Positions 2 to 32,617 are shown, counted from the first letter of the stretch. The stretch is DNA of 32,617 nucleotides from an uncultured Gammaproteobacteria bacterium (GCA_964448505.1 CAYUWA010000002.1:61733-94349); one strand, 5' to 3'. Translations and numbers: made by a program. Notes: generated by a model from the letters alone, not told the origin.

Positions 2-763
2 ACTAAAATAGAGAAAATTTTAGTAGAGGCCAGTGCAGAACAAAACGCCAACGGCAGTTGGTCAGATGCTTATGGCTATACAGCCGAGTACCTGGTAAAA
101 ACTGCGCCTGATGCAGAAATTTTTATTTATAACTCGGGTTGTTCAGAGGTCACCGATGGTCGGGATGACGAGAACGAAGACAATTGGTACATATTCAAGA
201 AACCAAATCTGTCTCCGATGCTGGAAGAGCGGAGAGAAGGTGCTCTTCGTAAAGTACATAATTTTTTTCGGGATATTAAAGCAATATCTGAGAATGATTA
301 TGTAGAGCTGTTTAATTCCGTTCTTGCCGCAGTAGAAATAGAAGATAAAGACATCTCTTTTTTTGGTGAGATTGGTCCTGATTGGTTAATTTCTGCTTAT
401 TCAACGAGCGGGTGTGCTTATTATGACGAGCGTTGGTGCTCTGTTTGGGCGGTTAATCCTGCCGATGATATTATTAAAATCGATAGTATCGTTACGGGCG
501 AAGATGTCGCCCAAAATGCTAATGGCTCCTGGGTTGATTCTTATGGTTATTATTTTAAATATCTTAAGAAAAAAGCTCCTGGCGCTCTATTCTTCATTGT
601 TAATGAAGGCCGCGATCGGCGCGCTGATCGCCAACCAAGCATATACGAAAATAGTTGGTCATTTCTCCGACCGTTAAGCCGGAAGGAGATTATGATCCAA
701 AAAATAAATTCTCAAAACAAACCCATAACACTCGGGGACGTTTTAAAGAATAGTTCTTGGTAG
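2..763 (+). CDS. hypothetical protein, 5'-partial (runs off the window start), with an internal duplicated module
   Basis: Frame 2 is open from nt 2 to the TAG at 761-763, so the ORF-track ATG at 218 is internal. The block at nt 8-205 (..AEQNANGSWSDAYGY..YLVKTAP..FIYNSG..NWYIFKKP) recurs at nt 470-673 (..VAQNANGSWVDSYGY..YLKKKAP..FIVNEG..NSWSFLRP). No family recognised. Confidence 0.7.
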   Translation, partial: TKIEKILVEASAEQNANGSWSDAYGYTAEYLVKTAPDAEIFIYNSGCSEVTDGRDDENEDNWYIFKKPNLSPMLEERREGALRKVHNFFRDIKAISENDYVELFNSVLAAVEIEDKDISFFGEIGPDWLISAYSTSGCAYYDERWCSVWAVNPADDIIKIDSIVTGEDVAQNANGSWVDSYGYYFKYLKKKAPGALFFIVNEGRDRRADRQPSIYENSWSFLRPLSRKEIMIQKINSQNKPITLGDVLKNSSW

Positions 764-1021: not shown

Positions 1022-2116
1022 TTATCTGAGAAACTTGTTAAAATTTTCTTTATTAACAAGATGTGTTTCTGATTCTTTGTAAATTTTATTGAATTTATGA
1101 AGGGCTGATGTTATATTCTCTTTGGAAAATTTACATTCAAAAGCGACCATATTTCCTTGATCTAGTTCAACGAGGTCTATTTCGCTTTTATCATAGGTTC
1201 TCCAAAAATAATGCGATGGATAATGTCCGCGGTTATGCATAAATTTCAATCTTTCAATGATAAAGAAATTTTCAAAAATTTTACCGTTATCATTTCTTAA
1301 TTCAAGCGGCGCAACATCTTGAGCTAAAGTATTTCTTAAACCAATATCCAAGAAGTAAACTTTATAAGATTTTTTAATTTCGGAACTTAAGTTTCTTGAG
1401 AAAGAGTATAAACGTTTAATAATAAATGCCTGCTCAAGTAAAGCAATATATCTTTCCACGGTCGCCTTGTTCGTATCAAGTATTTTTGCCAGTCTGTCCG
1501 TTGAGATTTGTGATCCTACTTCTCTGGCCAGAGTTATCGCCAGCTTTTCAAAAACAACCGGTTTACGAATTTGTTCAAAATTAAAAACATCTTTATAGAG
1601 ATAATTTGTCGTGATATTTTGCAAACGATCAAGTTTGTCGTTTTGATTTGCGGAAACGATTCCTGGGTACATGCCGAAAGTTAATATGCCATTAAGATCT
1701 CTGCCCCCAATTTCATTATATGAAAGAGGGTATAGCATAAATTCATAAGTTCTTCCCGTCATTGGTTCGTTTATTTTATTTGCTAAATCAAAAGAGGATG
1801 ATCCAGTGGCGATAATTTGTATTTGCGGGTATGTGTCAGTAAAATTTTTAAGAATAAGCCCGATGTTTTCAATCGTTTGAGCTTCGTCTAACACGACGAT
1901 CTTATAATCTTTGATTTTTTCATATAAAAGTTCCGGCTGTCTCGGGACGAGAACATTTCTTATTTCCAGAAGCTCACAGTTAAAGTGCCGCCCCCTATCT
2001 TTGTAGGGTTCAATAATTGTTTTTGAAAGAGTAGTTTTGCCTGATTGCCTCGGTCCGAGAATAATGATAACTTTACCTTGAAAGAGTTTTTCCTCAATTC
2101 TTGTCCTTATTTCGCG
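1022..2116 (-). CDS. AAA+ ATPase of the AAA_14 + DUF4143 type (COG1373-like); the open frame extends beyond the ORF-track start and is interrupted by an in-frame TAA near the 5' end (possible pseudogene)
   Basis: The ORF-track start (GTG at 1894) falls inside the Walker B motif (VVLDEAQ). The same frame is open up to nt 2116 and encodes Walker A GPRQSGKTT. The C-terminal part (..YFWRTYDKSEIDLVE..) is DUF4143-like. There is no ATG/GTG/TTG between 1894 and 2116. An in-frame ATG at 2131-2129 is separated from the frame by a TAA at 2119-2117. Confidence 0.85.
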   Translation of the reverse strand, partial: REIRTRIEEKLFQGKVIIILGPRQSGKTTLSKTIIEPYKDRGRHFNCELLEIRNVLVPRQPELLYEKIKDYKIVVLDEAQTIENIGLILKNFTDTYPQIQIIATGSSSFDLANKINEPMTGRTYEFMLYPLSYNEIGGRDLNGILTFGMYPGIVSANQNDKLDRLQNITTNYLYKDVFNFEQIRKPVVFEKLAITLAREVGSQISTDRLAKILDTNKATVERYIALLEQAFIIKRLYSFSRNLSSEIKKSYKVYFLDIGLRNTLAQDVAPLELRNDNGKIFENFFIIERLKFMHNRGHYPSHYFWRTYDKSEIDLVELDQGNMVAFECKFSKENITSALHKFNKIYKESETHLVNKENFNKFLR

Positions 2117-2307: not shown

Positions 2308-3081
2308 ATGAAAAATACAATATTATCCGAAAAAGACGCAAATTTAATATCTCAGTCCATAATAAAATATGGCCGTATTTTAGATATAAAAAAATTGATG
2401 ACTATTTTTTCAATTGAATATTCGGCGAGCGCTGCCCATAATCGCATAAACAAACTGGTGCGTTCAGGTTGGCTTATGCGGATTAGACAAGGACTTTATC
2501 TAATAATTGATAATTTGAGTGCCCGCGATCAAAATGATATTTCCTTGATACGTATCGCTAATGTCTTGGATCATAATTCTTATGTCAGTTTGGCGTATGC
2601 TTTAAACTATCATCAATTATTTGATCAATATAGTAGAACGGTTATTAGCATCTCCGATAAAATTAATAAAAAATATAATTTTGACGGACATCTTTATCAA
2701 TTTTCTAAAGTTAAGAAAGAAATGTATTTTGGTTTTACGGAAGAGTTAGATGATGGTAAAATTATTAAAATTGCTGAAGCCGAAAAGGCTCTAATTGACT
2801 ACCTCTATCTTGATAATAGCTTTTTCAGTGCCAGTTTAGTTTTTGAAAAATTACGTGATAATTATCAAATGCTTGATCTTGATAAACTGCAGGTTTACGC
2901 GGCGCGAGCCGGGACAACGATCAGTCGGAAAATCGGTTTTTTATTGGATGCGGCAGCGATTGATAGTACAAGACTATATCAAAGTTTGAAAAATAAAAAA
3001 GGTTTTAATCGTTTTACTTCTGAGTCTAAATTATTTAACGCCAAATGGCGAATTTATTATGATGAACGAATTATTAGATAG
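2308..3081 (+). CDS. abiEi: AbiEi-family antitoxin / transcriptional regulator (type IV TA system)
   Basis: N-terminal wHTH-like region ending in the ..RIRQGLYLI motif typical of AbiEi. It sits immediately upstream of an AbiEii nucleotidyltransferase gene and overlaps it by 23 nt. Confidence 0.8.
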   Translation: MKNTILSEKDANLISQSIIKYGRILDIKKLMTIFSIEYSASAAHNRINKLVRSGWLMRIRQGLYLIIDNLSARDQNDISLIRIANVLDHNSYVSLAYALNYHQLFDQYSRTVISISDKINKKYNFDGHLYQFSKVKKEMYFGFTEELDDGKIIKIAEAEKALIDYLYLDNSFFSASLVFEKLRDNYQMLDLDKLQVYAARAGTTISRKIGFLLDAAAIDSTRLYQSLKNKKGFNRFTSESKLFNAKWRIYYDERIIR

Positions 3082-3823
3082 AACGGAATTGACGTTCGCT
3101 AATAAAGCTTTAAAATATCCCCTTGCCATTGCCGAGAAGGATTATTTTTTAGCGTTCACTTCGAAAATTATTTTTGAATCGGTACTTTCTGGTCGGCTTA
3201 TTTTTAAGGGCGGAACTGCTTTATATCATATCTATCTTCCGCAACTCAGATTTTCCGAAGACCTGGATTTTTCTAGCAACGCTCAAAAAATAGAGCTCAG
3301 TGAATTAAAGAAAATTTTTGCCGATTCGGAATTTTTTGAAATTAAAAAAGAATATATTTCCGATGCGACAATAAAAATTGAGAAGTTGCAGTACCGCGGG
3401 CCCTTGGGTCTTGCCAATTCTTTAAAGGTTGAAGTTGATTTTCTGCAGAATGTTATTTTGCCGCCTTTAGAGCTTGATTACCAAAATGTTTATGGGGTTG
3501 AAACTAAAATGCGGGTCATGGATATCCGCGAAATTGCCGCTGAAAAAATTCGCGCAATGAATGATCGTATTCGTTATCGAGATTTTTATGATTTTGCGAT
3601 GATTCTTCTGAAGTTAAAAATAGATTTAAAAGAAGTTGAGGCTCTTTTACCGAAAAAAGAAGTTAGAAAAAACATGAGCCTGGAAAATATTTTAAATAAT
3701 TGGCTTTTGGCTAAACAAGAAAAACTAAAGGAATCATCTTCTATATATTTTTCTGAAGAATTAAGCGATGTGCAAATTGAAGAGCAGCTTAATAAGTTAG
3801 AGTTTGCCCCCATCTTATTATAA
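3059..3823 (+). CDS. abiEii: AbiEii/AbiGii-family nucleotidyltransferase toxin (DUF1814)
   Basis: Hallmark motifs FKGGTALYHIY and RFSEDLDFS near the N-terminus. The ~250-aa size and the gene overlap with abiEi also fit. Confidence 0.9.
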   Translation: MMNELLDRTELTFANKALKYPLAIAEKDYFLAFTSKIIFESVLSGRLIFKGGTALYHIYLPQLRFSEDLDFSSNAQKIELSELKKIFADSEFFEIKKEYISDATIKIEKLQYRGPLGLANSLKVEVDFLQNVILPPLELDYQNVYGVETKMRVMDIREIAAEKIRAMNDRIRYRDFYDFAMILLKLKIDLKEVEALLPKKEVRKNMSLENILNNWLLAKQEKLKESSSIYFSEELSDVQIEEQLNKLEFAPILL

Positions 3824-6489: not shown

Positions 6490-6798
6490 ATGATTAAGTT
6501 TGAACATTACCCGGGAGTAGCGCCTATAGAAGATATTAAGGAACATAATCCAAGAGAGTCGGTTGATGTTGGACCTTCATTTACTACTCAAGGCAAACTT
6601 CAACAAAGGATTTCTGAACTAAACCATGTGTGCGGAGTATTAGGAATACAACTTGAGAAGGGAACGCTGACCAAGATTCAGGAAGAGAAATTGAATCTGG
6701 CAGTAGCAGAGCTAAATAATCTTGAAAACCAAGCGAAAAAACTGAAAGAAGTGTGTGGTTTAGATCAAACCATGGAATCAAAAGCTTTTCAAAATTAG
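6490..6798 (+). CDS. hypothetical small protein (102 aa, predicted coiled-coil C-terminal half)
   Basis: It is the only long ORF in the ftsK-murE gap and fits the gene spacing. No recognisable motif. Confidence 0.55.
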   Translation: MIKFEHYPGVAPIEDIKEHNPRESVDVGPSFTTQGKLQQRISELNHVCGVLGIQLEKGTLTKIQEEKLNLAVAELNNLENQAKKLKEVCGLDQTMESKAFQN

Positions 6799-15914: not shown

Positions 15915-17405
15915 ATGTTTAAAACAAGTTTTAAGAAATTGTCTTTTATATTTTCCTTACGCTTATTTTTAGGCTCTCTTTTGTTGATTATCTTTCTAGT
16001 TTTTTTGTTTTTAAAAGTCGTTCCTTTCGGGAAGATAACTTATTACCGCGACTATTCCGACAAGCTTCGTTCCGGCAAAGGTTTTATCTATGGATTTACT
16101 CCGAGCGAGCGAATATTTATTTCAAAAAGCGGTGAGCCAAGAATAATCGGCGACCCGGTTTATTTTTCTTTATTTACGCCTAGAACTTTTGATAAGGCCA
16201 AAGTAACTGTAGAGTATAAGGACAATCTTAGTGCGGAAACGCCGATAATTGAAGCCGGTGTTTTAAGTGACAAAATTGTTTGGAATTATGATTTAAAACC
16301 GCTCCAAAATAAGATTATTGATTCTTTACGTTTAAACTGGGCTGAGATTAGTAGCGGCGATGTGTCTTTGTTGCAAAAAGATAATAACTATAATGATTTT
16401 CAGGCGTTTAAAAATGATTTAGAAAAGGGGAGCTTAAAAAACTGTCCGGAGGGGCCAAGAAACTGCTTAGCATTTTATAATTATTCTTTTGACTTAGATA
16501 ATTCTTTAAACGCCAAGAATGAAATAAATAGTTCTTTGCCGCTGGAATTAGATATACCGCTTCGCGGAGCGCACCAATTCTTCTTGTACCTTAATTCGGA
16601 AGAGCTTAGCTTGGATTTTAGCTTTAGCGATTTAAATCAAGACAAAGATCTTGACCCGATTACGGTTAATATTTATTACGGCAACAAATTGTTAGATACC
16701 CTGTTTTTAGCTGATAATAATTTGGCGTCTAGCGCTAAAGTAATTGAGAATCGGAGTTTGTCTTTTAAGAAAAGCAATTTAAAACCGGGGTTTTATAAGG
16801 TTGAGTTAAAAGTTAGCGATGATATTGTTATTAAGAAGATTAAATCTTCGGTTAATAAAATCTCGTTTATCAATAAAGTCTGGCCGGTGTCTAATTCGGG
16901 TGGGGTGGTTCTTTATTCTGATGCTAATTATTTGCAAGTTAAAGCATACAGCCCGGCTAGCCTCCAATCACTGGAGTCGGGCGGGCTACAACTAGTTATT
17001 GATGAAGCTTACAGACAATTTTATTTTAACTTGCCGGGGGAAAACAAAATTAAAGAAATAAAGATTAAGAAAGACGATTTGATTTTGGAAAATAATGGAG
17101 TTTTTTCTTGGTCGCCAAATAGCCTTATTAATCCTGGTTTTACTAAGGTTGATCGGTTTTTCAAACCCTCAGAAAATATAAAATATATTGTCTCCCGCTA
17201 TGATACTCCGCAAATTAAAGATAATTTTAAGTTCGCAAGCGCCGAATTTAATCTTCGCGGCGTTTATCGCGAGAAAGGTAAGTATAGCTTTATGATTTCT
17301 ATTCCCGGATTACGTGCCGAAGAAAATATTAACAATTATTTAGAAATAAAAAGTATTAAGATAGAGTTAAGCGGCAGAACCTTATGGCAAAAAATATTCA
17401 ATTAA
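15915..17405 (+). CDS. hypothetical membrane-anchored protein (N-terminal TM helix, large extracytoplasmic domain)
   Basis: Long ORF. It is the only gene in the window with a canonical SD (GAAGGAGAT before the ATG). Hydrophobic segment LFLGSLLLIIFLVFLFL. No known domain recognised. Confidence 0.75.
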   Translation: MFKTSFKKLSFIFSLRLFLGSLLLIIFLVFLFLKVVPFGKITYYRDYSDKLRSGKGFIYGFTPSERIFISKSGEPRIIGDPVYFSLFTPRTFDKAKVTVEYKDNLSAETPIIEAGVLSDKIVWNYDLKPLQNKIIDSLRLNWAEISSGDVSLLQKDNNYNDFQAFKNDLEKGSLKNCPEGPRNCLAFYNYSFDLDNSLNAKNEINSSLPLELDIPLRGAHQFFLYLNSEELSLDFSFSDLNQDKDLDPITVNIYYGNKLLDTLFLADNNLASSAKVIENRSLSFKKSNLKPGFYKVELKVSDDIVIKKIKSSVNKISFINKVWPVSNSGGVVLYSDANYLQVKAYSPASLQSLESGGLQLVIDEAYRQFYFNLPGENKIKEIKIKKDDLILENNGVFSWSPNSLINPGFTKVDRFFKPSENIKYIVSRYDTPQIKDNFKFASAEFNLRGVYREKGKYSFMISIPGLRAEENINNYLEIKSIKIELSGRTLWQKIFN

Positions 17406-17568: not shown

Positions 17569-19554
17569 ATGAGTTTAAATTATTTTTTCAATCCCGAAGC
17601 GGTCGCTATTTTAGGCGCTTCAAGCAATAAGAAAAAAATCGGTCGCCAAGTACTGGATAATATAAGTCAAGGCGGTTTTAAAGGAAGAATTTATCCGATA
17701 AATTTACAAGAAAAAAAAGTCGCCGGCCTGAAGGCTTATCCGGATTTGTTAAAACTGCCCAAGCAAGATTTCAATAAATTATTACTCGTTATCGCTATTC
17801 CGGCGCAATTTGTCGTTGAAGAGATAAAAAAATGCGTTAGTCTTGGAATTAAAAACGTAATTATTATCAGTGCCGGATTCAAAGAAGCAGGAGCAGATGG
17901 TATTAATCAGGAAAAAGAAATTATTAGCCTCGCTGAGGCTCATAAAATAAATATTTTAGGACCAAATTGTTTAGGGCTTATTAATACTTTTAATAATCTA
18001 AATGCCAGTTTTGCCGCGAGCGGCGTCAGGCCGGGGAAAATTGCCTTATTATCACAATCAGGAGCAGTCGGAAGTGCCGCTCTTGATTGGCTTAGAACTA
18101 AAGACTTTAACTTGGCATATTTTGTAAGTTTAGGTAACAAAGCGGTTCTAGATGAGAATGATTTATTGGAATATTTAGCGCATGATAAAAGAATAGAAAT
18201 GGTTGTCGCGTATTTGGAGGAAATTAGTGACGGAGAAAGATTCATGTCGCTCGTTTCTAGGTTGGCGAAGAGAAAACCAGTGGCAATTTTAAAAGCAGGT
18301 AGCAGCTCCGCCGGAGGCGAAATGGCCAAGTCTCATACCGGTTCTTTAGCCGGTTCAAACGAAGCAGTTATAAGCGGGCTGAAAAGAGCCGGAGCGATTT
18401 GTTTAAATAACCTGGAGGAATTATTTAATTTATTGTTTTTATTTCAAAAACAAGCCTGGAAGAATAAGGGTTTGCAAGATTTGCATTTGCTGACTAATGC
18501 CGGCGGGCCGGCGGTTTTAACGGTTGATGCCTTAAGTCGGAAAGGGCTTTCTTTGGGCTCTAGTCTTGATTTATTGGGTGACGCCGATGCCTTGCGTTAT
18601 GAAAATGCTTTAAATAAATTATTGGAAAATAAGAAAGTTAATAATGTCTTGGTTCTTCTAACGCCGCAGACCGTTACTGAACCGCTTAAGACAGCGGAGA
18701 TTATTGTTGAGGCGGCTAAAAAATATCCGAATAAATTAATTATGGCGAGCTTTATCGGCGGAGGCGCGGTAAGATCGGCTCGGTCATTATTGGAAGACCA
18801 TGAAATCCCATTTTTTGAGTATCCGGAAGAAGCAATTGAAACTTTCAAACAATTAAATCTCTATAAAATCAGAATGAGGGATTTAAGCGATTATAGAAAA
18901 TTTAACGGTAGAATAAAAAAAGCAATTAAAGACGATGATTACTTAAAGTCGCTTTCCTTGTTAAAGCAATATGGAATTTCAACCGTTAAAACTCATAAAT
19001 ATAAAGGCGAGGCTATAAATAGTTTAAAATTTCCGGTTGTTTTAAAAGCGGTTGGTCCGGATTTTTTACATAAAACCGAAAAAGGAGGCGTCGTCGTCAA
19101 TCTAAAATCGGAAAAGGAGTTAAAACAAGCGGCGCGTAATCTCTTGAATAAAAATTCTAAGGTTTTTAATAATAGTCGTAATTATTTAGTTGTTCAAAAT
19201 CAAGCCAGTAAATTTCAGGAAATAATTATCGGGTTTAAAAGAGATGTTTCATTCGGACCGATTATGATGGTCGGTCTTGGCGGGATTTACGCGGAAATAT
19301 TTAAGGAAGTTAAATTAGAAGTTGCCGATCTTGATTTTAAACGAGCCTTACTTATGATTAAAAGCTTAAAAATATATCCGATTTTAGACGGGGCGCGCGG
19401 GCAAAAAAAGTATAACGTTAAAGCTTTGGCAAAAGTAATTGTTAATTTAGCGAAGCTCGCTAATGAACATCCGGAAATAAAAGAATTGGATATAAACCCG
19501 GCCTTCATTTTTGAAGAAGGCGTTCTAGCCGGGGATGTTAGAATTATTTTATAG
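17569..19554 (+). CDS. acetate--CoA ligase (ADP-forming), fused alpha/beta (NDP-forming acyl-CoA synthetase)
   Basis: N-terminal CoA-binding motif VAILGASSNKKKIGRQV, phosphohistidine loop MAKSHTGSLAGS, and a C-terminal ATP-grasp-like half. Confidence 0.9.
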   Translation: MSLNYFFNPEAVAILGASSNKKKIGRQVLDNISQGGFKGRIYPINLQEKKVAGLKAYPDLLKLPKQDFNKLLLVIAIPAQFVVEEIKKCVSLGIKNVIIISAGFKEAGADGINQEKEIISLAEAHKINILGPNCLGLINTFNNLNASFAASGVRPGKIALLSQSGAVGSAALDWLRTKDFNLAYFVSLGNKAVLDENDLLEYLAHDKRIEMVVAYLEEISDGERFMSLVSRLAKRKPVAILKAGSSSAGGEMAKSHTGSLAGSNEAVISGLKRAGAICLNNLEELFNLLFLFQKQAWKNKGLQDLHLLTNAGGPAVLTVDALSRKGLSLGSSLDLLGDADALRYENALNKLLENKKVNNVLVLLTPQTVTEPLKTAEIIVEAAKKYPNKLIMASFIGGGAVRSARSLLEDHEIPFFEYPEEAIETFKQLNLYKIRMRDLSDYRKFNGRIKKAIKDDDYLKSLSLLKQYGISTVKTHKYKGEAINSLKFPVVLKAVGPDFLHKTEKGGVVVNLKSEKELKQAARNLLNKNSKVFNNSRNYLVVQNQASKFQEIIIGFKRDVSFGPIMMVGLGGIYAEIFKEVKLEVADLDFKRALLMIKSLKIYPILDGARGQKKYNVKALAKVIVNLAKLANEHPEIKELDINPAFIFEEGVLAGDVRIIL

Positions 19555-27289: not shown

Positions 27290-27694
27290 ATGCCAAAATT
27301 TATTATATTTAGCGACGGCGGAGCAAGAGGCAACCCCGGTCCGGCCGGCATCGGTGCGATTATTTACGATGAAAAGAATAAGATCGTTTCGGAATTGTCC
27401 GAGTATTTAGGTGTCTCAACGAATAATCAAGCCGAGTATAAAGCTTTAATTATGGCCTTAAAAAAGGCGGCTGCGCTTAGAGGAGAGGAGCTTGTTTGTT
27501 ATTTAGATAGCGAACTCGTCGTTAAACAACTTAATCGGGAATACAAAATAAAAAATAAAGACCTGGCGCCTTTATTTTTAGAAGTTTATAATTTAAGCTT
27601 AGGTTTTAAGAAAATATCATTTGTTCATATTCCGCGAGAGAAAAATAAGGAAGCAGATAGACTTGCCAACAAAGCGATGGATAGAGGGGAATAA
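27290..27694 (+). CDS. rnhA: ribonuclease HI family protein
   Basis: SDGGARGNPGPAGIG.., ..NNQAEYKAL.., ..DSELVV.., ..NKEADRLAN (DEDD catalytic pattern). Confidence 0.9.
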   Translation: MPKFIIFSDGGARGNPGPAGIGAIIYDEKNKIVSELSEYLGVSTNNQAEYKALIMALKKAAALRGEELVCYLDSELVVKQLNREYKIKNKDLAPLFLEVYNLSLGFKKISFVHIPREKNKEADRLANKAMDRGE

Positions 27695-27696
27695 TA

Positions 27697-29199
27697 TTAT
27701 TTAACGTGGAGGTGGCTGCCGGTCGCTTTCTCAGTCTGTACACCGTCGCAATTAGGATATTCATTCAGGACACTTAGTCCTGATTTTTGTAAAATAGAGA
27801 TTAATTTTTTTACATTATCGCAAGTAGCATTCGCGCTATAAAGAGCAACATCAACGCAAGTTCCATCGTTATGGCATAGAGAAGCGTGATCGATAGTTTT
27901 CGGGTAAGCTTCAGTAATTTGCCATTCAAGGCCATTAGAATTATTCCAAGCAGTGTTTAATTTATTTAGTAAAGAATTATTGGCAAAACGATGGCTGTCT
28001 TTTGTTGGTATTTTTGTTATTTCAGAACAGTCGTTACAGGTGCCAGAGCAAGAGCCGATTGTTAATTTTCCGACACCAGTTGACGACAACGCTTTATCTA
28101 GAGAGTCACCGCTCCAAATATCAATTCTTTTACCTTTAATCGCTCCGCCCCTATCAGTTATAGTATAAGTTTTTCCCTTGAAACAAACTTTTTCTCCAAA
28201 AGGAAGATTGCTACAATCTGGCCCGGCTATATCTCCATCTTTTGGTTCGCTATCACTCGCTGTTTTATTGCAATAAGGGGTATTTTTATCAAACTTTTTA
28301 CAAGGCTTATAGTCTGGAAAAGTTTTTTTGTACATGGGGCAAGTTTTTGACTCATCTCGACCTTGGGGACAGGAACATTGCATCCCGACTATACAAAAAA
28401 AATCGTCACTGTCTTCCCATGCCGGTTTATAGTACCCGGTAGCATAGAAGTCAACACCATTTTTTAACTCCTCGTCCGTTGCACAACCGGAACTAATAAA
28501 CTTAGAAGCGGCGGCGGATGCTTTAGCGCTTGATAAAGCTTCAGCTTTTTCCAGTCTTCCGACAGTAATCGGTTGGAAATTAACTAAATCGGGATTGATT
28601 TGAGCAAGGATTATATAAGAAGCTAAAAGAATAACCAGACCGGAAACACTTCCGATAATAAGTTCTTTAGCTTGCGTAACTTTTGAAGCATCACCGCCGG
28701 AAACAAGCCAAAGTATGCCGCCCGCCATTAGAACTAGGGCAGCGAGAATTCCGGCGATTTTAACGCCGTAGTCGTAAATATTAATAATATATTCGCTTAG
28801 CCAAAATACCTTGCATTGATAATTACCGCTTTCATCAATTTCACATTGCGGTTGACTTAATTTTTCTTGCAAGCCGTTTATATCTACTTGTAAAGTAGGA
28901 ATAACGAATTTAGGGGCCTCCTGGGTTGAAGCATTAAAATAATCGCCTGTACAGCAGCAGACATATCTAGTATTAGTAAATGCAAAACTGGTGGTGGTAG
29001 GCTTTGTCCCGGAACAAATTTCACCAGCCCTTGCTTGATGTTCATCACTATAACAACCCTGAGTTGTTTGTGAAGAACTTAATTCGGGGTTAGTATTAGT
29101 TGTTTCAGCTCTCCATGCGCATTTGGTTTCCGCATTAGCCATCAGTGGCGATAGAAATAAAGCTAAGAAGGAAAATATAAATATTTTTTTTATTTTCAT
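27697..29199 (-). CDS. secreted Cys-rich protein: VirB2/T4SS-pilin-like two-helix hairpin fused to MltA/3D-like and LAS (M15-like) peptidoglycan hydrolase domains
   Basis: Signal peptide ..PLMANA/ETK. 8 Cys in residues 27-129. Pilin-like hairpin at residues 134-211 (IAGILAALVLMAGGILWLVSGGDASKVTQAKELIIGSVSGLVILLASYIILAQINP). ATGYYKP plus ..TITDRGGAIKGKRIDIW.. (3D/MltA-like). C-terminal H-x6-D (CHNDGTCVD) and HLH (Zn-peptidase LAS pattern). Confidence 0.8.
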   Translation of the reverse strand: MKIKKIFIFSFLALFLSPLMANAETKCAWRAETTNTNPELSSSQTTQGCYSDEHQARAGEICSGTKPTTTSFAFTNTRYVCCCTGDYFNASTQEAPKFVIPTLQVDINGLQEKLSQPQCEIDESGNYQCKVFWLSEYIINIYDYGVKIAGILAALVLMAGGILWLVSGGDASKVTQAKELIIGSVSGLVILLASYIILAQINPDLVNFQPITVGRLEKAEALSSAKASAAASKFISSGCATDEELKNGVDFYATGYYKPAWEDSDDFFCIVGMQCSCPQGRDESKTCPMYKKTFPDYKPCKKFDKNTPYCNKTASDSEPKDGDIAGPDCSNLPFGEKVCFKGKTYTITDRGGAIKGKRIDIWSGDSLDKALSSTGVGKLTIGSCSGTCNDCSEITKIPTKDSHRFANNSLLNKLNTAWNNSNGLEWQITEAYPKTIDHASLCHNDGTCVDVALYSANATCDNVKKLISILQKSGLSVLNEYPNCDGVQTEKATGSHLHVK

Positions 29200-29200
29200 A

Positions 29201-30073
29201 TTAAAGTTTATATTTTTCTAGATTATAATCGGCTATTTCTTGAATTGCTTTTAAATCGTTTTCTTTAAGATGTTTGAATCTTCCTTGAGCGCTTAAGTAT
29301 TCTTTTACTGGCTTACTTTTAAAATTAGAATTTATACTTGAGGCGCTTAATTTTCCGTTAGTATATTCTAGGAGCGGATATAATCCGGTTTTTACGGCGA
29401 GTTTCCCCATAAAAATCGCGTCGTCGGTTTTTATTTTCCAACCGGGAACACAAGGAGCAAGAATTTGGATATATGAAGGACCTTTAGCTTCTAGGGCTTT
29501 TTTAATTTTGTTAGTTATATCGTCTGGAAAACCGGCCGTACTTTGGGCGACGTATTTTAAACCGTGCGACAGAGCAATTCCTATCATATCCTTTTTTCTT
29601 TGAGTTGAACCGATAGAATTTTCGCCGTCCGGAGTTGTTGTCGTTGAAGCGCCATAAGGCGTCGCGCCCGAAGCTTGGATTCCGGTATTAGAATAGGCTT
29701 CGGTATCGTAACAGACGTATAAAATATTTTCTCCCCTTTCCCACATCCCGCTAATAAGACCCATTCCAATATCATAAGTTCCGCCGTCTCCTGCTTGAAC
29801 TAATACTTTAGTTTTTTTGTCCCCTTTCTTATTTAAAGCGGCAAGAATTCCCGAAGCAACCGAAGAAGCATTTTCAAATAAAGAATGAATCCAGGGAAGA
29901 CCCCAGGCGCTTTGCGGATAAGCGGTTGTTGTTACCTCTAAACAACCGGTTGCGTTAGCAATTATAACATTCTCGTTTAATCCACGCATAACCGCTTGAA
30001 CAGCAGATAATTGTCCACAGCCGGCACAAGCATTATGACCGGGAGATATAAATTTGTTTTGATTAGTTTTCAT
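29201..30073 (-). CDS. porB: pyruvate:ferredoxin oxidoreductase, beta (TPP-binding) subunit
   Basis: PGHNACAGCG near the N-terminus, the GDGGTYDIG TPP motif, and ~290 aa. Confidence 0.93.
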   Translation of the reverse strand: MKTNQNKFISPGHNACAGCGQLSAVQAVMRGLNENVIIANATGCLEVTTTAYPQSAWGLPWIHSLFENASSVASGILAALNKKGDKKTKVLVQAGDGGTYDIGMGLISGMWERGENILYVCYDTEAYSNTGIQASGATPYGASTTTTPDGENSIGSTQRKKDMIGIALSHGLKYVAQSTAGFPDDITNKIKKALEAKGPSYIQILAPCVPGWKIKTDDAIFMGKLAVKTGLYPLLEYTNGKLSASSINSNFKSKPVKEYLSAQGRFKHLKENDLKAIQEIADYNLEKYKL

Positions 30074-30084
30074 AAATTATCTTT

Positions 30085-31155
30085 TTATTCCGTATAACAA
30101 CAGTATAAATCATTCGTGGCACATTGGCGGCCACCGCTATTATCGCGATAATATTTTTTGATCGTCGTCCCCAGTCTGCTACAGGTTATAGAAGAGCAGT
30201 AAGCGCCAGGTTCTGTTCCGCAGTGTGACGATTCCTCTCCTTTTCCTCTGTAACAATATCCTTCGTAACAAAAACCATTTAATGAAATATCGTTAAACAT
30301 TCCTGAATTTACAATATCCGGGCAACTTTCCCCGTCCTTTATATCTGTGCAACTAGATACTTTGCCCCTACATTCCGAGATGTTATAACAAGAACCGTCT
30401 TTTTTTTCAGACAATATTTTTATTTCATTATTAAAGTAACTTCCACAGTTTTCGCGTATTTCTTGGGTGTTTTCACTCATAAAATTAAAACAAAATTCAA
30501 CTTTTCCCTCGCAATCATTTTTAATTAAACAACTAATTTTATCTTTGACGCAAGTCCTCCCAACAACTGAGTATGTAAATTCATTCGTGGATTCATAGAA
30601 TGTTGTTCCTACGAAAGCGTCACATTCTTTCTGGCTCATTATTTCCGCTGTGTTAGATGATTGGCAACAACCCTCAACAACCTTTTCTATATAACTTAGG
30701 CCGATTGGTCTTAATGCCAATAAATCAGGATTAATTGTGTTTAAAATTATCCAAGAGCTAAGTAAAATTACTAGTCCGGAAATGCTTCCGATAATAAGCT
30801 CTTTCGCTTGTCCGACTTTTCCGGAATCGCCTCCCGAAGTTAACCAGATAACGCCTCCAGCCATTAAGACTATTGCCGCTAAAATCCCTGCCGCCGCCAT
30901 GCCGTAGTCGTATAAGCCTTTAATATATTTAGCAAGTAAGTCGCTTTTCATTTGGCCATTGCTTTCTTGCCCGACATTTACGCTATCGCCTTTATTAACG
31001 AGATTAGGAATACTGACATTGGGAGAAAACTTTAAAGACTCTTTAATATCGGCGGAGGCGATTTTCGGGGCGGAGATTAAAAGACCAAAGCCGATTATTT
31101 GTAAGACCAATAAGGAAAGAAGAGAAATTTTAATAAATTTAAAATTTAATTTCAT
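30085..31155 (-). CDS. secreted protein: VirB2/T4SS-pilin-like two-helix hairpin followed by a ~195-aa domain with 20 cysteines
   Basis: N-terminal signal/anchor. Residues 74-151 are 54/78 identical to residues 134-211 of the 27697..29199 product. C-terminal region with 20 Cys (GCCQSS.. to ..LYCCYTE). The start overlaps the porA stop (ATGA). Confidence 0.8.
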   Translation of the reverse strand: MKLNFKFIKISLLSLLVLQIIGFGLLISAPKIASADIKESLKFSPNVSIPNLVNKGDSVNVGQESNGQMKSDLLAKYIKGLYDYGMAAAGILAAIVLMAGGVIWLTSGGDSGKVGQAKELIIGSISGLVILLSSWIILNTINPDLLALRPIGLSYIEKVVEGCCQSSNTAEIMSQKECDAFVGTTFYESTNEFTYSVVGRTCVKDKISCLIKNDCEGKVEFCFNFMSENTQEIRENCGSYFNNEIKILSEKKDGSCYNISECRGKVSSCTDIKDGESCPDIVNSGMFNDISLNGFCYEGYCYRGKGEESSHCGTEPGAYCSSITCSRLGTTIKKYYRDNSGGRQCATNDLYCCYTE

Positions 31156-32300
31156 ATTTTTCCGATAAATTTTATTTGTTTATTTTTAAGCGGTAAATCT
31201 TTAACTATCTTTTTAATCATTTCAGTTCTAATATCTCTACCGCCAAGACCGACGATATAGTTTTTTATATTTTTATTACCGCTTACCGCCGTTTTAATAT
31301 CGGTATAAAGCGGTCCGGCTTGACCGAGGCTTATCGCTTTTTCAATCACGCCAATATTTTTTATATTCTTTAGAATTTTATTTATTTCTTCTCCGGGAAA
31401 AGGGCGATAGGTTTTTATCTTTAAAACGCCGACTTTCTTATTTCCTTTTAAAGTTTCACGAATCGTTCCGACAATAGATCCCATAGCAATTAAAATACTT
31501 TCCGGATTTTTCGGCCCGTAATATTCTATTAAGCCGTTATCGCTCGTTTTAAGGTTAAAAACTTTTTTTAATAAACTATATTCTTGTTTAATTACGCTCA
31601 GGCTATTTATTAAATCGTTATGAAGACTTTCCCGAGCTTCAAAATAATATTCCGGCGAGAAAAAAGAGCCGAGAGTTACCGGATTTTTAGGATTTAAATA
31701 AGTTCCCGTTTCAGGCTTATAATAAGGTAAGAATTTTTTTATTTCTTTAGACTCCGGAATTATAACCGCTTCATAAGAATGAGTAAGAATAAAACCATCA
31801 ACATTTACTAGAACCGGCAGTTTTAATTTCTCCGCTATTTTATAAGCTAAAATATGTTGATAAATTGCTTCTTGATTATCTTCGGAAAATAACTGAATAA
31901 ATCCGGAATCCCTAACGCTCATGGCGTCGCTATGATCATTCCAAATATTAATTGGCGCGGAAACGGCGCGGTTAGCGCAGGTCATAACTATCGGCAGGCG
32001 CATACCGGCAATATTATAAACAACCTCGTTCATTAGTAATAGCCCTTGCGAACTAGTTGCGCTATAGGTACGAACGCCGGTCGCGCTCGCGCCAAGAACA
32101 ATAGAGGCGGCGGCAAATTCGCTCTCTGCTCTTACATACTCATAATTAGCTTGCCCCTCCGCTTTAAATTTAGCCAAGTCCTCAACGATATGGGTTTGCG
32201 GTGTAATCGGGTAAGCGGAAACGACATCCGGCGCAATATTTTTTATTACTTGCGCTATCGCGTTAGAGCCCTCCAGAAATTGTTTTTTATTTTTAATCAT
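31152..32300 (-). CDS. porA: pyruvate:ferredoxin oxidoreductase, alpha subunit
   Basis: ..GSNAIAQVIKNIAPDVVSAYPITPQTHIVE.. N-terminal POR signature and ~380 aa. Confidence 0.93.
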   Translation of the reverse strand: MIKNKKQFLEGSNAIAQVIKNIAPDVVSAYPITPQTHIVEDLAKFKAEGQANYEYVRAESEFAAASIVLGASATGVRTYSATSSQGLLLMNEVVYNIAGMRLPIVMTCANRAVSAPINIWNDHSDAMSVRDSGFIQLFSEDNQEAIYQHILAYKIAEKLKLPVLVNVDGFILTHSYEAVIIPESKEIKKFLPYYKPETGTYLNPKNPVTLGSFFSPEYYFEARESLHNDLINSLSVIKQEYSLLKKVFNLKTSDNGLIEYYGPKNPESILIAMGSIVGTIRETLKGNKKVGVLKIKTYRPFPGEEINKILKNIKNIGVIEKAISLGQAGPLYTDIKTAVSGNKNIKNYIVGLGGRDIRTEMIKKIVKDLPLKNKQIKFIGKI

Positions 32301-32307
32301 AACAAAT

Positions 32308-32565
32308 TTAATAATCTTTTCTCATTTCTATCGCCTTAACCGGGCATTCTTTAGCGCAGAGCCCGCAGCCCTTACAATAATCAAAATCAGTTTGCGGTTT
32401 TAATTTAGAATTTATCATTTTCATTTCAATACAAGCCTCGGGACAGATTTTAGCACAAAAAGAACAGCCGATGCACTTTAAATTATCGGTTACCGGTTTT
32501 AAGGTCCGCCAATTGCCGGTCTTATTATTTAGAGATGAATTTTTCTTGGCGATTAGATTTTTCAT
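32308..32565 (-). CDS. porD: pyruvate:ferredoxin oxidoreductase, delta subunit (2x[4Fe-4S] ferredoxin)
   Basis: Two CxxCxxCxxxCP clusters: CIGCSFCAKICP and CKGCGLCAKECP. 85 aa. Confidence 0.9.
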   Translation of the reverse strand: MKNLIAKKNSSLNNKTGNWRTLKPVTDNLKCIGCSFCAKICPEACIEMKMINSKLKPQTDFDYCKGCGLCAKECPVKAIEMRKDY

Positions 32566-32617
32566 AATTTATAAGCGCGTTCTATTGCCGCTATATTTTT
32601 AGAAATAATTGATTCTC
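32562..32617 (-). CDS. 3' end of an upstream gene, probably the POR gamma subunit (partial, runs off the window end)
   Basis: The minus-strand frame reads ..ESIISKNIAAIERAYKL*. Its TGA (32564-32562) overlaps the porD ATG as ATGA. The assignment rests only on the canonical gamma-delta-alpha-beta order. Confidence 0.35.
   Translation of the reverse strand, partial: ESIISKNIAAIERAYKL

Follow-up and report, generated by a model that had tools for sequence, protein, structure and literature searches.

The stretch of DNA analysed in this study (hereafter the window; 32,617 nt from an uncultured bacterium, GCA_964448505.1, CAYUWA010000002.1:61733-94349) ends with a minus-strand operon for a putative pyruvate:ferredoxin oxidoreductase (POR), in which a gene for a pilin-like secreted protein of 356 aa is placed between porA and porB, the genes of the alpha and beta subunits, and a second pilin-like gene, of 500 aa, follows porB. 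The copy between porA and porB is referred to as AB and the copy trailing porB as PB. All coordinates are those of the whole stretch, and the junctions were read from the list of open reading frames (ORFs) together with the minus-strand sequence. The gene order and every overlap and gap claimed for this strand in an earlier sequence-only reading were reproduced by both: the 3' end of porG overlaps porD by ATGA, porA begins 7 nt after porD and overlaps the AB gene by ATGA, and porB and the PB gene follow with gaps of 11 nt and 1 nt, respectively. The features of the region are as follows.

32562..32617, minus strand: 3' end of porG (POR gamma subunit), the last 18 codons, truncated by the window end; its TGA overlaps the porD ATG (ATGA)
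32308..32565, minus strand: porD, delta subunit, 85 aa, 2x[4Fe-4S] ferredoxin-like (Pfam Fer4, Fer4_21)
31152..32300, minus strand: porA, alpha subunit, 382 aa (Pfam POR_N 9.5e-71, PFOR_II 1e-24)
30085..31155, minus strand: AB pilin-like gene, 356 aa (1071 nt), PF18895 at 32.4 bits, with a positional orthologue in every related locus
30733..30939, minus strand: predicted transmembrane hairpin of AB, two helices, aa 73-141 (modelled helices 73-106 and 111-141, with an SGGDSGK loop between them)
30088..30708, minus strand: Cys-rich, beta-rich domain of AB, aa 150-356, from alignment and model (motifs CYxxxC, CG, LxCC), predicted to be extracellular
29201..30073, minus strand: porB, beta subunit, 290 aa (Pfam TPP_enzyme_C 3e-19)
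27697..29199, minus strand: PB pilin-like gene, 500 aa (PF18895 E 1.6e-5; weak 3D domain)
27290..27694, plus strand: RNase H gene (Pfam RNase_H, RVT_3), convergent, marking the 3' end of the operon and found at the same place in nearly all relatives

Conservation and descent of the split operon

Related loci were collected by a PorB-alignment scan of one genome per GTDB species, which gave 460 hits; the best 80 were analysed, their ORFs being called and then searched with the window proteins. These relatives are metagenome-assembled genomes (MAGs) of ultra-small bacteria, Falkowbacteria-like and other Patescibacteria, with PorB about 66-84% identical. The results showed that, among these best 80 of the 460 hits, one or two pilin-like genes lie between porA and porB in all 73 of the 73 species genomes that carry both genes on one contig, and a pilin-like gene was likewise found between them in 7 further metagenome loci reached by protein look-ups. 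The sequence-only reading had asked for such a comparison and had named adjacency of the alpha and beta genes in relatives as the outcome that would speak against it; the insertion proved to be conserved, and no adjacent porA and porB were seen among the approximately 80 related loci examined. In about 80% of the loci, one or two pilin-like genes are also present after porB. Two further contigs, one from JGI and one from ENA, repeat the order of the window and are 99.8% identical to it in DNA. Literature searches found no description of por alpha and beta genes split by a secreted-protein gene, and the arrangement is ancient, conserved and undescribed.

The operon lies in a syntenic neighbourhood of 15 kb, with the order LeuRS(-) ExoIII(-) / DsbA porG porD porA PIL porB [PIL] / RNaseH(-) RecJ(-) LepA(-) MurJ(-), PIL being a pilin-like gene, and the unrelated flanking genes (LeuRS, ExoIII, RNase H, RecJ, LepA, MurJ) are fixed in position to the same degree as the pilin-like genes. 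Directly upstream of porG, on the same strand, a gene for a DsbA-like thioredoxin-fold protein (PF13462, PF01323) was found in all related loci except one (L072), in which none was detected; it lies just past the end of the window, and the spacing between dsbA and porG is 1-2 nt wherever gene calls were checked (for example, L037:3279-4169 and L083:3290-4039). A PD-(D/E)XK gene is located between dsbA and porG in L091. In another locus, L090, RpoC directly follows porB, and the dsbA-por-pilin unit is whole there although the flanking synteny is broken. Outside the clade, the nearest PorB in a search of representatives was at most 53% identical, several of these proteins having inteins, and a search seeded by a basal PorB gave matches that were all within the clade. 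Inteins of the LAGLIDADG type were seen at the TPP-site region of PorB in several of the distant representatives (among them proteins P0242 and P0245).

Across the approximately 80 genomes, the median gap is 3 nt for porA-pilin, 10 nt for pilin-porB and -4 nt for porB-pilin, in comparison to 6.5 nt for porD-porA. The pilin junctions are thus as tight as those within por, which argues strongly for co-transcription of the whole operon, and no terminator-like sites were found at any junction in the window. Promoter-like hexamers numbered 28 in the window in comparison to 14.2 in shuffled sequences (about twofold), a scan of AT-rich sequence that carries no evidence of function. The obligatory co-expression of the surface proteins with POR that had been put forward for this locus is plausible on the basis of these junctions. 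At the 3' end of the operon, the stop codons of the RNase H gene and the PB gene are 2 nt apart, and a terminator-like hairpin with a T-run (window 27765-27783, plus strand) is found within the 500-aa gene near its 3' end, where it is positioned to terminate the RNase H transcript. The RNase H gene is broken into pieces of 80 aa and 56 aa in a 7.9-kb JGI contig (L001).

The view that the two pilin-like genes are paralogues was borne out, since they share a core of 99 residues at 60% identity and no other similarity; at the DNA level, the cores in the window are 69.6% identical. When core domains were compared among genomes, the best match of AB was the AB copy of another genome in 80 of 85 cases, and that of PB was another PB copy in 66 of 67. 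Because best matches follow position, AB and PB are two old positional orthologues rather than the result of repeated insertions, and this finding, with the divergence of the cores, also led us to reject a recent duplication or gene conversion of the two genes. The extra tandem pilin copies in some loci are recent, with core identity of 71-100%. In a neighbour-joining tree of LepA and RecJ, rooted at the midpoint, the earliest branches (L068, L079, L072, L077, L026 and L049, and also L089) carry the AB copy only, and AB therefore appears to be the original gene and PB a later duplicate, an order that depends on the rooting.

The encoded proteins and other genes of the window

The subunit set of a four-subunit POR is present: alpha with POR_N and PFOR_II, beta with TPP_enzyme_C and delta with its 2x4Fe-4S are encoded separately, as is gamma (POR domain), which lies only partly in the window and has a full-length porG (PF01558) at the corresponding position in the relatives. 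In 21 homologues, the window protein among them, the GDGG thiamine pyrophosphate (TPP) motif of PorB and its cluster cysteines C16, C19, C44 and C208 do not vary. The best NCBIfam model for PorA was PorA_Arch, matched over its full length at 445 bits in comparison to an equivalog cut-off of 550, and PorB matched the NCBIfam PorB model over its full length at 355 bits in comparison to a cut-off of 405, with VOR and related models scoring lower. On the basis of the retained PorB motifs and the full-length model matches, the por genes seem to encode an intact archaeal-type four-subunit 2-oxoacid:ferredoxin oxidoreductase, and the enzyme looks functional; pyruvate is the most likely, though putative, substrate, the scores being below the equivalog cut-offs. 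Several variants of porA were noted. In the ENA contig L002, about 78 nt (26 codons, in-frame) are missing from the porA 3' region, corresponding to window 31276-31353 and flanked by a 20-nt repeat, which is a strain-level deletion variant in PorA domain II. One Falkowbacteria MAG has a 733-aa porA with an intein-like insertion (L080:3236-5437); we considered it as a possible pilin fusion and rejected it, the insert being an intein and no pilin. An apparent porA-pilin fusion protein in L072 was an artefact, caused by a stretch of N in the scaffold.

An ADP-forming acetyl-CoA synthetase gene (CoA_binding, Succ_CoA_lig, ATP-grasp_5; window 17569-19554, plus strand) lies 8 kb from por and is also near the locus in L089. 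It is an expected partner of the enzyme, which would allow ATP to be gained from the acetyl-CoA made by POR.

The AB protein scored above the cut-off of the Pfam type IV secretion system (T4SS) pilin family T4SS_pilin (PF18895; 32.4 bits in comparison to 26.6), and NCBI annotates the pilin-like proteins simply as 'pilin'. An AlphaFold2 model built on an alignment of 67 sequences had a mean predicted local distance difference test (pLDDT) score of 83, with 80-93 in the Cys domain; a single-sequence model reached a pLDDT of 43 and was not used. The model opens with a signal helix (residues 5-27) and an ASA motif, and continues with a short beta segment, the two hairpin helices and the beta-rich domain. 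The hairpin superposes on the Aeropyrum conjugation pilin 8dfu (TMt 0.69, root-mean-square deviation 1.9 A, 68 columns) with an E-value that is not significant, 8dfu being the sole pilin among the weak structural matches. No structural relatives of the Cys domain were found by Foldseek at E<0.001 in PDB or BFVD. The 67-sequence alignment contains about 18-20 invariant or near-invariant cysteines, with the motifs CYNxxCW, GEPCGN, GGRxC and LxCC, and the number of cysteines in the domain is even in 82 of 85 homologues. The natural reading of the C-terminal region is a predicted extracellular disulfide-bonded domain, given the DsbA gene in the operon, the prediction of both hairpin ends outside the cell, and the even and conserved cysteines; the cytoplasmic part is predicted to be no more than a loop of some 14 residues. 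Two other readings were tried and rejected: a hypervariable C-terminus, the family being conserved with invariant cysteines, and an Fe-S or PorE/F-like role, which does not fit the predicted topology, the missing cluster motifs or the even number of cysteines. Among homologues of the 356-aa protein whose context was looked up (30-61% identical), 7 of 7 are in this same locus and 6 of 7 between porA and porB, and no further pilin copies were found in the flanks of the loci, within at most 7 kb per side.

The PB protein begins with a signal peptide and a Cys-rich N-terminal region; a VirB2-like hairpin (aa 134-205) and a 3D-like region (approximately aa 328-370) come next, and the Hx6D and HxH motifs lie in a terminal domain. 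The window copy scored 25.3 bits against PF18895, slightly below the cut-off, and the family is matched at E<0.01 in 65 of 66 homologues, in which the Cys-rich N-terminal region is kept and the C-terminal head is swapped. The heads of the 66 proteins include 17 VanY, 10 Peptidase_M15, 9 3D, 4 M15_4, 4 NlpC/P60, 3 SLT_3 and 2 C39-like domains, and the PB family is, by prediction, a membrane-anchored cell-wall hydrolase with interchangeable catalytic domains. The earlier label of a pilin-hydrolase is thus appropriate for the family, with its VanY/M15, 3D, NlpC/P60 and SLT heads, in comparison to the window copy, which has only a weak 3D match below the cut-off (19-21 bits in comparison to 23.8; E 1.6e-3, and 3e-4 on a fragment). 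The Hx6D and HxH motifs are visible in the last 117 aa of this copy, and a LAS peptidase was not confirmed there: Pfam gave no match to this segment, and its comparison with a VanY-type PB homologue showed nothing significant. The 500-aa sequence had no match in a search of the PDB.

As for the functional partner of these Cys-rich secreted proteins, DsbA seems a more natural one than POR: it probably forms the disulfides of the pilin-like proteins, and its gene stays with the pilin genes when por is lost, as described below. The term pilin itself suits the two proteins only in part. Both have the signal peptide, the two-helix hydrophobic hairpin and the PF18895 profile match (above the cut-off for AB) of the family, in comparison to a small mature protein consisting of the hairpin only, which neither of them is: AB has a domain of about 200 aa after the hairpin and PB has domains on both sides. 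Because they depart from pilins in size and in T4SS context, AB and PB may be better called VirB2-like-anchored surface proteins.

The other genes of the window encode FtsK, a Mur ligase, RpoB, RpoC, a glycosyltransferase, MurJ, LepA, RecJ and a few unknowns. Three ORFs have no Pfam match (15915-17405, plus strand, 496 aa; 218-763, plus strand, 181 aa; 6490-6798, plus strand, 102 aa), the first of them being flanked by rpoC and the acetyl-CoA synthetase gene. Where the window is low in GC, at 2308-3823 (plus strand) and 1022-1894 (minus strand), a type IV toxin-antitoxin pair, AbiEi/AbiEii, was seen beside a truncated gene for an AAA_14/DUF4143 ATPase.

Explanations for the association of POR and the surface proteins

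The proposal that POR and the pilin-like proteins depend on each other in function ran against the evidence from a lineage without por at this locus. In this lineage (L085, L086 and L094, identical in three assemblies) the order is dsbA-PIL-PIL with the same flanking genes (L085:5236-8647), one of the two pilin-like genes having an NlpC/P60 head, and no por remnants were detected at the locus by tblastn. Its LepA is 83% identical to that of the window in comparison to 69-72% for the basal por-bearing genomes, and its closest relatives all carry por. The lineage was placed at least 7 nodes deep in every bootstrap tree, and it grouped with the window, excluding the basal por-bearing lineages, in 40 of 50 bootstrap replicates. 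When metagenomes were scanned for relatives of its pilin, only the same population was returned. On the parsimonious reading, porG, porD, porA and porB were lost from the locus of this nested lineage and the surface-protein genes were kept together with dsbA, and the surface genes therefore do not need POR. A specific role of the gap between porA and porB was not supported either, since a DUF4258/DUF2283 toxin-antitoxin-like pair occupies it, between the pilin genes and porB, in two loci (L090:5458-5944 and L091:5443-5873); with the two pilin genes alongside, the gap there holds up to four foreign genes and evidently tolerates unrelated insertions. The conserved position of the pilin-like gene is likewise no proof of coupling, because the unrelated flanking genes are equally fixed.

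The explanation that we favour, and regard as reasonably probable, is a composite co-transcribed operon fixed by descent, in which POR and the surface proteins share no biochemistry. The seven genes, dsbA-porG-porD-porA-pilAB-porB-(pilPB), would be transcribed together and in part translationally coupled, and the operon would have been inherited vertically from the ancestor of the Falkowbacteria-like Patescibacteria clade. AB and PB would be exported by the Sec route, and their VirB2-like two-helix hairpin would anchor them in the membrane with both termini outside. The older AB protein would display its conserved disulfide-rich domain and the younger PB paralogue interchangeable peptidoglycan-hydrolase domains, and DsbA, encoded first in the operon, would form the disulfides of both. 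If the seven genes are co-transcribed, the surface proteins would be made whenever POR is made, and the link between POR and the pilin-like proteins would be one of shared expression and history, with a gap that just tolerates inserts.

Several points count against this explanation. The position of AB is constant in 100% of the por-bearing genomes, even in L090 with its broken synteny, which might exceed what pure drift would be expected to give. The por-less state is represented by a single population, whose genome could carry por at another site. The excess of promoter-like hexamers may leave room for internal promoters, and it is only by prediction that the Cys domain forms disulfides and lies outside the cell. 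Finally, the loci sampled are all within the clade, and an insertion of the pilin gene into por and an insertion of por into a dsbA-pilin operon are both possible.

Among the alternatives, an artefact of assembly or binning, or a recent strain-specific insertion or duplication, draws on the fact that the window and the JGI contig L001 (99.76% identical) end at the identical base within porG, the contig beginning at the last base of the window (32617); this suggests an assembly break just upstream, from strain variation or a repeat. A misassembled or unique arrangement is nevertheless ruled out by the identical order in three assemblies of the population and in about 80 other species, and the divergence of the paralogous cores and an orthology that tracks position speak against a recent event as well, so that this alternative has already been refuted by the comparative data and retains practically no credence. 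A different possibility is that AB and PB are real T4SS pilus subunits, either major or tip/minor ones with decorated ends, whose T4SS is encoded elsewhere and for which the por operon supplies strong constitutive expression. The PF18895 match and the VirB2-like hairpin agree with it, as does the fact that peptidoglycan hydrolases (with VirB1-like function) usually accompany a T4SS. VirB2-like pilins are, according to a recent survey, widespread in Patescibacteria, often in variable arrays and sometimes far from virB4, and such an array is reported there to be essential in Southlakia (Microb Genom 2025, PMC12102498). The mature sizes of approximately 320-470 aa are, however, far above those of known VirB2 or TraA pilins, and a 200-aa domain on each subunit is hard to reconcile with the known packing of T4SS pili. 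Nor was a T4SS encountered nearby: VirB4, VirB6 and VirD4 are absent from the 32.6-kb window, as the sequence-only reading had stated, the sole FtsK-family protein there having the 4TM, alpha and gamma domains of a true FtsK, and no VirB4, VirB3 or VirB6 was found there or among the conserved flank genes within at most 7 kb per side of more than 80 loci. We therefore consider pilus subunits to be unlikely, and the suggestion of a membrane anchor in place of a pilus subunit is plausible given extracellular domains of 200-300 aa and no T4SS genes within 7 kb.

A true functional coupling, with AB as a POR accessory or an obligate physiological partner that selection holds between porA and porB, is in our judgement rather unlikely. 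AB might, for example, anchor POR, or the mRNA for it, at the membrane where the host is contacted, or the synthesis of attachment and wall-attack proteins might be tied to fermentative flux. Such coupling would fit with a position that is fully conserved across about 80 species and joined by ATGA overlaps or gaps of a few nt, with the intact unit where flanking synteny breaks (L090), with a Cys-rich domain of AB that is conserved and not hypervariable, and with the finding that all sampled members of this pilin subfamily come from this one locus. It is harder to reconcile with a dsbA-PIL-PIL order that persists after the loss of all por genes, with toxin-antitoxin-like genes in the same gap and with the equal synteny of unrelated flanking genes; moreover, the bulk of AB is predicted outside the cell with only its short loop facing the cytoplasm, and AB lacks a ferredoxin-type CxxCxxCxxxC motif, so that it is not an electron carrier like PorE or PorF. 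Quite improbable to us is an adaptive placement, in which the genes for exported proteins (dsbA, pilAB, pilPB) would tether the por polycistronic mRNA to the membrane while their products are exported co-translationally, POR would be made and assembled at the membrane or host-contact zone, and the surface proteins would be made in fixed proportion to fermentative capacity; if true, host exploitation would be hard-wired to energy metabolism in an epibiotic lineage.

Relation to known systems and significance

In canonical four-subunit por operons, such as those of Pyrococcus, Thermotoga and Helicobacter, the alpha and beta genes are adjacent. The operon described here matches porGDAB of Pyrococcus and Thermotoga and porCDAB of Helicobacter in its four subunit families and in their relative order (gamma-delta-alpha-beta); it differs from them in that one to four foreign genes, pilin-like and sometimes with the toxin-antitoxin-like pair, always part alpha from beta, in that a DsbA-like gene precedes gamma, and in that a gene for a membrane-anchored peptidoglycan hydrolase usually follows beta. 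The por operon of Methanococcus likewise has extra cysteine-rich ORFs, porE and porF. PorE and PorF are cytoplasmic polyferredoxin-like proteins encoded after porB, whereas the proteins at this locus have no cluster motifs of the ferredoxin type, and are predicted to be exported and to carry a transmembrane hairpin.

With the VirB2/TrbC-like pilins of Patescibacteria, AB and PB share the signal peptide and the two-helix PF18895 hairpin; they differ in their far greater size, with 200-300 aa of extracellular domain, and in having neither virB4 nor any other T4SS gene nearby. The trio of AB, porB and PB would count as one of the pilin arrays of the survey, which, in the passages searched, mentions neither por nor an embedding in a central-metabolism operon (PMC12102498). 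The PB family also resembles TraG of pIP501 and PrgK of pCF10, the VirB1-like hydrolases of monoderm T4SS, in that a membrane anchor is joined to a domain of the lytic-transglycosylase-like (3D, SLT) or peptidase (M15/VanY, NlpC/P60) kind, and differs from them in a pilin-type hairpin as the anchor, in a head that varies between species and in the absence of a T4SS context. POR and VirB2-like pilins are each well known; what is new, as far as our literature searches show, is the lineage-wide and permanent split of alpha from beta by a gene for a secreted protein.

The split por operon offers a clean marker for the clade, and the locus-specific family of fast-evolving surface proteins, with a confidently modelled Cys-rich domain that has no structural relative, provides candidates for host interaction in uncultured epibionts. 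The lineage that dropped the enzyme and kept the surface genes provides a natural test of operon membership against function, and for annotation pipelines the locus is a caution against equating gene neighbourhood with functional linkage in highly syntenic, compact genomes.

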